Assembly (NCBI RefSeq): GCF_003334315.1
Contig: NZ_QOWR01000003.1
DNA: 64,000 bases
Source: Escherichia coli
GTDB taxonomy: Bacteria; Pseudomonadota; Gammaproteobacteria; Enterobacterales; Enterobacteriaceae
Direction: 5' to 3' (one strand)
This document shows positions 28,170 through 28,222 of the stretch, one piece after another. The notes under the pieces are model-generated. The model was not told the origin of the DNA and did no database searches. It saw nothing but the letters and a program-made list of their open reading frames with translations. Both the position numbers and the translations under genes were made by a program. Positions within the stretch are counted from its first letter, which is position 1. Each line of letters begins with the position of its first letter.

Positions 28170-28198
28170 AGATGGGGACAAGGGAGAATAATTTCAAG
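28170..28198 (-). promoter_or_regulatory. sigma32 heat-shock promoter of htpG
   Basis: Minus strand reads CTTGAAA-N14-CCCCATCT, matching the sigma32 consensus, about 50 nt upstream of htpG ATG. Confidence 0.75.
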
Positions 28199-28222
28199 CG
28201 AGAGCAGGTGATCCTGCTCTCG
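28199..28222 (-). terminator. Perfect 10-bp palindrome between recR stop and htpG promoter
   Basis: CGAGAGCAGG-tgat-CCTGCTCTCG; no clean U-tract. Confidence 0.45.

Follow-up and report, generated by a model that had tools for sequence, protein, structure and literature searches.

A conserved RNA hairpin at the 3' end of recR abuts the σ32 promoter of htpG in Escherichia coli

In Escherichia coli, the sequence downstream of recR encodes a conserved RNA hairpin that borders directly on the −35 element of the σ32 promoter of htpG, and the published in vivo 3' ends of recR mRNA lie only a few nucleotides past its stem. We propose, with a probability of roughly 90%, that the general function of this hairpin is to create and protect the recR 3' end. 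Whether it would do so through Rho-independent, hairpin-driven and probably leaky termination, followed by trimming back to the hairpin, is a question on which we see the odds as about even. The junction itself is an ordinary meeting of two E. coli operons, both parts of which are already contained in published data. Our literature search retrieved no explicit account of the recR-htpG junction or of a recR terminator, which older papers on recR or dnaX transcription may nevertheless mention.

Layout of the recR-htpG junction

The junction is located in a 64,000-nt stretch of E. coli DNA (the window), whose recR-htpG spacer is identical to that of strain MG1655 when the two are aligned; a window position p corresponds to MG1655 position 495,120 + (28,118 − p). 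All elements of the junction lie on the minus strand. According to the list of open reading frames and the RefSeq annotation, dnaX (29215-31146) is followed by ybaB (28833-29162) and recR (28228-28833; MG1655 494,405-495,010), the last gene of the dnaX-ybaB-recR unit, while the htpG coding sequence spans 26244-28118, with its ATG at 28118. Between the two units, the recR stop codon (TAA, 28230-28228) is succeeded by five nucleotides (GCAAA, 28227-28223), the hairpin, the −35 element, the promoter spacer, the −10 element and the htpG start codon. The stop codon of ybaB and the start codon of recR share one base (TAATG, at 28833), an overlap consistent with translational coupling as described previously (PMC9610160). 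A review of YbaB describes the operon and leaves out its terminator. Further upstream, dnaX contains its programmed −1 frameshift site GCAAAAAAGAGTGA (A AAA AAG) at 29852-29865, a known feature for which RefSeq annotates the joined gamma product.

The hairpin consists of the 5' arm CGAGAGCAGG (28222-28213), the loop AUCA (28212-28209) and the 3' arm CCTGCTCTCG (28208-28199), which reads CCUGCUCUCG as paired in the RNA stem, and maps to MG1655 495,016-495,039. An initial annotation had pointed out a perfect 10-bp palindrome 5 bp past the recR stop codon, and both its coordinates and its spacing were exact when the sequence was re-read; the loop had been given as TGAT because the plus strand was quoted. 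In the predicted RNA fold, the core hairpin (28199-28222) has a perfect 10-bp stem with a 4-nt loop and a free energy of about −17.8 kcal/mol. A repeat search revealed that the complementary arms reach 14 nt (28195-28208 and 28213-28226), with one A·C mismatch, such that the 5' flank CAAAC pairs with GCUUG and the extended stem takes in the CTTG of the −35 element. A 101-nt RNA segment containing the hairpin folds at −29.9 kcal/mol (z = −4.7), and none of 200 shuffled versions was equally stable. The whole window holds eight perfect stems of at least 10 bp with loops of 3-8 nt, against about 0.4 expected per 64 kb by our own estimate (4^-10 × 6 loop lengths × 64,000). Most of these eight stems are terminators or REP-like elements. 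The recR hairpin is a G+C-rich stem-loop of high stability that follows the final gene of an operon.

Several other hairpins in the window are worth recording in their own right. Two of them, at 5945-5970 and 58401-58425, are of the GCCGGATGCG...CGCATCCGGC type and REP-like by sequence. A perfect 12-bp palindrome, TAACCCTCTCCG-GG-CGGAGAGGGTTA, is found at 47254-47279 and has no U-rich tail on either strand. Finally, the hairpin GGCCAATAGCGATATTGGCC followed by T7 at 15959-15978 on the minus strand matches the ChiX sRNA terminator sequence printed in a table by Adams et al. (PMC7815308).

The promoter of htpG is a classical σ32 promoter, which we take to be the one mapped by Cowing et al. in 1985; it was reportedly used there to derive the original σ32 consensus and is said to have been re-mapped by Nonaka et al. 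in 2006. It comprises the −35 element CTTGAAA (28198-28192; MG1655 495,040-495,046), a 14-nt spacer (28191-28178) and the −10 element CCCCATCT (28177-28170; MG1655 495,061-495,068). The entire motif, CTTGAAA-N14-CCCCATCT (28198-28170), starts directly after the hairpin and 52 nt before the htpG ATG; it had been recognized in the initial annotation, with coordinates and an N14 spacing that are exact, and fits the σ32 consensus. That consensus places CTTGAA at −35 to −30, and the dnaKp1 scaffold has CCCCAT 14 nt downstream (PMC10216364). The htpG promoter, with 15 nt between CTTGAA and CCCCAT, agrees with it in its −35 element and in the spacing to its −10 element. CTTGAA-N13-17-CCCCAT occurs once in the 64 kb, where 0.04 occurrences are expected. 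Among 33 aligned species, CTTGAA and the CCA core of the −10 element are invariant and CCCCAT is nearly so, with the C residues flanking the CCA core conserved in at least 90% of the species. Previous work describes htpG as σ32-dependent, with two overlapping annotated promoters (bioRxiv 10.1101/177030).

Conservation and covariation of the hairpin

Scanning one genome per species with RecR yielded 80 loci. In nearly all Enterobacterales loci, htpG lies downstream of recR, and it does so in none of the Vibrionaceae loci (L062 and L064-L080 in our numbering), where htpG is absent from the 1.5 kb downstream of recR; the adjacency of the two genes is therefore restricted to the Enterobacterales in this sample. 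In the Enterobacteriaceae and Erwiniaceae, the spacer mostly measures 98-115 nt, with lengths of 143 and 146 nt at two loci. All 34 short-spacer loci of these two families have a hairpin at the equivalent place, with free energies of −11 to −22 kcal/mol, dinucleotide-shuffle z values between −3.1 and −7.5 and a length of 24 nt in 21 of the 34.

The pairing has been kept while the sequence has turned over. The 34 species contain 26 distinct 5' arms, with three to six types of base pair at each stem position, and the stems of different genera are unrelated in sequence, as illustrated by the 5' arms of E. coli (CGAGAGCAGG), Citrobacter (CGGAGGCCGC), Siccibacter (CGACGGTGCGC), Erwinia (ACGGCACGT), Pantoea (GCCGGCGTT) and Tatumella (GCTGATGTTCT). 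Base pairs were counted in the register of each individual sequence, since about ten stems sit 1-2 nt off. In a MAFFT alignment of 33 species, nine of the ten core pairs show double-sided changes, and pairing amounts to 79%, as compared to 66% in column shuffles (none of 500 reaching 79%) and to 35-47% when the partners are slid against each other. Re-alignment with a covariance model, which did not re-register the roughly ten displaced stems, gave the same pairing numbers. The pairs of the stem extension are also widely formed in the 33 species, with a C-G pair in 32, an A-U or G-U pair in all 33 and a further A-U or G-U pair in 23, and a flexible hairpin search picks the extended form in about 21 Enterobacteriaceae loci. 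The A-rich 5' flank CAAAC is itself conserved.

The situation in more distant relatives indicates to which of the two genes the hairpin belongs. In the Yersiniaceae, Pectobacteriaceae, Hafniaceae and Morganellaceae, the spacer extends over 140-300 nt, and a stable hairpin, where present, adjoins the recR stop codon and lies 25-58 nt away from the −35 element. Since these detached hairpins stay beside the recR stop codon, we assign the hairpin to recR and not to the promoter.

Within E. coli, an 81-nt region covering the junction is at least 97% identical in 5,425 of 5,426 complete genomes, and about 70% of the complete genomes (3,777) carry one or more nucleotide differences from the window at unspecified positions of this region. 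Among the strains that were aligned, variants are confined to the promoter spacer and the sequence immediately after the −10 element; the stem, the −35 element and the −10 core are free of them. In E. albertii, the stem departs from that of E. coli by a single A→G change, which gives a G·U pair. One variable site, at 28164 on the minus strand, 6 nt downstream of CCCCATCT, is close to the expected transcription start of htpG; the sequence there is CCCACATCC in K-12 and the window and CCCTCATCC in O157:H7, strain A34, strain SCPM-O-B-8794 and E. albertii.

Published recR 3' ends and the mode of termination

The mapping of recR 3' ends, proposed in the initial annotation as a check, is available from two published datasets, both of which place the ends just past the hairpin (window positions 28193-28196, minus strand). 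By Term-seq, a 'primary' recR 3' end was detected at 495,042 on the plus strand of the MG1655 chromosome (Adams 2021; PMC7815308, Supp. file 1, sheet LB 0.4), with a modest signal of about 1,800 reads in one of three conditions. This position corresponds to 28196 in the window, which is the second T in CTTGAA and lies 3 nt beyond the core stem. RNAtag-seq/TRS analysis identified a 'Primary' recR terminus with a dominant position at 495,044-495,045, or 28194-28193 in the window, and peak boundaries at 495,038-495,053, or 28200-28185 (Bar 2023; PMC10687069, Supp. Data 2, Supp. Data 3 and a third table). At least three data sheets report this terminus, at adjusted p values of about 1e-62 to 1e-288 and with a signal of 0.93-0.97, and the same study predicts the same recR hairpin fold, with a maximum U-run of 2. 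The TRS end thus lies 5-6 nt past the stem, as compared to 6-7 nt for the 3' end of htpG (497,034-497,035) in the same dataset (PMC10687069), which is generated at a canonical intrinsic terminator (26195-26239, minus strand) with a 12-bp stem (26210-26239) followed by TTTTTCTTTT. Since the published recR ends fall 3-6 nt beyond the stem, the 3' terminus of recR mRNA is located within the −35 hexamer of the htpG promoter. Term-seq and TRS additionally report an 'internal' 3' end at MG1655 494,016-494,017 (window position ~29221, minus strand), a few nucleotides before the end of dnaX and after a small hairpin, which may be a partial stop or a processing site between dnaX and ybaB.

How these ends arise can be framed as a sequence of steps in which the hairpin itself terminates transcription. 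The palindrome would be transcribed as the final 24-32 nt of the dnaX/ybaB-recR mRNAs and fold into a stable hairpin. As RNA polymerase moves through the A/U-rich segment formed by the −35 element and the early promoter spacer (CUUGAAAUUAUU), the 10-14 bp hairpin would form behind it and release a fraction of the complexes. The recR ends would then be trimmed to 3-6 nt past the stem, with the hairpin blocking 3' exonucleases, and the σ32 promoter immediately downstream would start a separate htpG transcript without the hairpin. The structure, its conservation and covariation, the strand under selection and the in vivo 3' ends are shown by the data, whereas the mechanism of release, its efficiency and any insulation of the htpG promoter from upstream read-through are inferred.

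Leaky, hairpin-driven termination is favored by the perfect 10-bp stem and its fold statistics, by the presence of a covarying hairpin in all 34 short-spacer loci, with a wobble bias that points to the recR-sense strand (see below), and by in vivo ends at a distance from the stem that resembles the one at the htpG terminator. The conserved A-rich 5' flank fits as well. Intrinsic termination by E. coli RNA polymerase generally depends on a U-tract, and it is here that the reading meets its main difficulty. The tail following the recR stem (CUUGAAAU) has three U residues in 8 nt in place of a tract of 7-8 nt, with a d'Aubenton-Carafa-style tail score of −2.49, as compared to −5.15 for the htpG terminator, so that the hairpin is not a canonical intrinsic terminator. 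A consensus terminator scan of the window indeed called it on neither strand, because the tail is too poor in the sense direction and because, on the plus strand, a G·T extension of the stem takes up the T-run. Moreover, a steady-state 3' end is equally compatible with termination and with trimming, and the Term-seq signal is limited to a single condition.

Somewhat less probable, in our estimation, is the alternative that the hairpin acts as a protective stem-loop and not as a terminator. According to this scenario, polymerases arriving from recR would run past the hairpin and be released further downstream by Rho, loaded on the C-rich, G-poor RNA of the promoter and leader region, or else the read-through transcripts would be cleaved; 3' exonucleases (PNPase and RNase II) would then trim them back to the hairpin, which would define the stable recR 3' end. 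The recR site shares several features with the class of 3' ends defined by Dar & Sorek (PMC6061677), including a stable stem-loop without a U-rich tail, a 3' end directly after it and an excess of C over G just downstream. Its tail score is weak, and a stretch of rut-like composition (28139-28198, minus strand), which comprises the promoter plus the first part of the htpG leader, has 17 C and 2 G residues in the first 40 nt past the stem. The difference between C and G over the 60 nt past the hairpin falls into the top 0.66% of all 60-nt segments of the window, and orthologs retain this bias, with 18.9 C and 6.5 G on average, although a σ32 promoter demands such a composition as well. On the other hand, only about 80 nt of untranslated RNA separate the hairpin from the ATG of htpG, and an A-rich 5' flank is more characteristic of intrinsic terminators. 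Furthermore, the Rho-dependent regions listed by Adams et al. (PMC7815308, Supp. file 2) include no bicyclomycin-sensitive region at the recR-htpG junction, a finding that speaks for leaky hairpin-driven termination and against Rho as weak, low-power evidence, because bicyclomycin-induced read-through would be masked by the strong transcription that starts at the htpG promoter.

The detached hairpins bear on both modes. Of the 13 species in which the recR hairpin is separated from the promoter, three (L041, L053 and L057) have a true U-tract after it, so that, throughout the order, this position acts like a terminator site; in the remaining ten, the hairpin has none, as anticipated for a protective element. 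This mixture fits the suggestion of Dar & Sorek that 3' ends drift between the two modes. The original proposal that the palindrome is a terminator for the ybaB-recR transcript is hence borne out with respect to the 3' end, which is supported by two independent studies and by covariation, with the qualification that the missing U-tract sets it apart from a canonical intrinsic terminator and that either of the two modes may operate.

The abutment, alternative readings and wider context

The contact between hairpin and promoter is itself constant. Relative to the C of CTTGAA, the hairpin has its 3' end at offset 0 in 25 of the 34 loci and never beyond ±2 nt, and the CAA of the 5' flank, the partner of the TTG in the −35 element, is conserved. 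Insertions are found before the hairpin in L027 and after the promoter in L018 and L023, and never between the hairpin and the −35 element. Judged by these alignments, the conserved 0±2 nt abutment is suggestive of a constraint. Compaction alone is the economical reading. It is tempting to speculate that the zero-distance overlap has been selected, with the −35 element doubling as the last pairs and the tail of the recR hairpin and thereby coupling recR 3'-end formation to σ32 recognition, an idea to which we assign a small but appreciable likelihood. Coupling would explain why the 0±2 offset and the 24-nt hairpin have remained steady despite full turnover of the stem and insertions on the outer sides. 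If it exists, σ32 holoenzyme bound during heat shock could alter recR termination or read-through; alternatively, release of polymerase right at the −35 element could keep the promoter free of occlusion. A requirement for the −35 element as a terminator tail is unsupported, since U-less hairpins follow recR even when detached from the promoter, in 10 of 13 cases.

The pattern of substitutions in the stem allows the selected molecule to be identified. In the recR-sense orientation, the stems of the 34 loci contain 30 G·U pairs and one A·C mismatch, and the sense fold is more stable than the antisense fold in 22 loci, with the reverse in 11 (Wilcoxon p = 0.007). Because G·U pairs are kept, A·C mismatches are not and the sense fold is favored, selection is, on this comparative evidence, acting on pairing in the recR-sense RNA, and the hairpin is an RNA element of that transcript.

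This conclusion weighs against two further readings. The first, which we regard as very unlikely, is that the palindrome serves as an antisense or bidirectional terminator that stops transcription running antisense through the htpG 5' region. The tail on the plus strand (TTTGCTTA) is indeed more U-rich, with five U residues in 8 nt and a score of −3.90 as compared to −2.49 for the sense tail, and the CAAAC flank together with the stop codon maintains this antisense U-richness in the Enterobacteriaceae. However, the G·U pairs of the sense stem would be C·A mismatches in an antisense RNA, whose fold is moreover the poorer one in most loci. A scan of the window finds no antisense promoter, and none is known at the recR-htpG junction. 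Moreover, the sole 3' end at 4950xx in the Term-seq tables (PMC7815308) is on the recR-sense strand. We reject an antisense terminator on the basis of the strand-specific 3' ends and the wobble asymmetry.

Slightly less likely still is a function at the DNA level, in which the repeat, at −36 to −59, would modulate the σ32 promoter either as a cruciform or as an operator bound by a dimeric regulator. A perfect inverted repeat does occupy the usual place of an upstream activator, repressor or UP element, and its spacing to the −35 element is conserved. Against this notion, the half-sites vary in sequence while the pairing is kept, as seen from the 26 different arms in 34 species, the tolerance of G·T but not of A·C is a signature of RNA, and in the other families the hairpin resides beside recR and not beside the promoter. 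A transcription factor operator or cruciform was rejected, given the lack of a conserved half-site and the asymmetry between G·U and A·C. Finally, a chance palindrome or a mobile REP/BIME-like repeat has a negligible probability and was dismissed. REP-like GCCGGATG hairpins do exist elsewhere in the window, but the recR hairpin contains no GCCGGATG-type REP consensus, its region occurs once per genome in 5,425 of 5,426 E. coli genomes, its pairing is kept by covariation across two families, and the recR-htpG spacer region matches no Rfam family even at a permissive threshold.

Compared with known systems, the promoter half of the junction is the htpG promoter itself and agrees with σ32 promoters such as dnaK P1 in its −35 CTTGAA, its C-rich −10 CCCCATNT and its position upstream of the Hsp90 homologue htpG. 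The core elements are the same, and the distinguishing feature is that the region of the UP element is taken by the G+C-rich hairpin of the upstream operon. The recR side has in common with intrinsic terminators a G+C-rich stem-loop of 10-14 bp a few nucleotides past the last stop codon of an operon, an A-rich 5' flank, an in vivo 3' end a few nucleotides past the stem and true U-tracts at orthologous recR sites in three other genera, whereas its tail is the −35 hexamer of a promoter and not a U-tract. With the U-less protective stem-loops of Dar & Sorek (2018; PMC6061677), it shares the low U content, the excess of C over G downstream and a precise end at the stem; unlike in that class, there is no documented Rho dependence at the recR site, and the C-rich downstream sequence is a functional promoter, with the start codon of a translated gene within about 80 nt. 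The recR 3' end is already catalogued and of a known kind, either a weak intrinsic terminator or a protective stem-loop.

Close packing of this sort is reportedly not unique to recR and htpG: Grundström and Jaurin are said to have described in 1982 that the E. coli frd terminator overlaps the promoter-attenuator of ampC. In both cases, two neighboring units transcribed in the same direction are packed such that termination and initiation signals share sequence. The ampC promoter, however, reportedly precedes the shared hairpin, so that the latter attenuates ampC as well, whereas the recR hairpin lies upstream of the htpG promoter and is absent from htpG mRNA.

The arrangement also has a practical side. 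The htpG promoter is in use as a σ32 and burden reporter part (bioRxiv 10.1101/177030), and how well a cloned fragment is insulated from transcription arriving from upstream could depend on whether it contains the recR hairpin. More generally, the recR-htpG junction provides a clean and well-conserved case of an operon end packed tightly against the next promoter, with a published mRNA 3' end inside a −35 hexamer, and serves as an example of a functional 3' hairpin without a U-tract.
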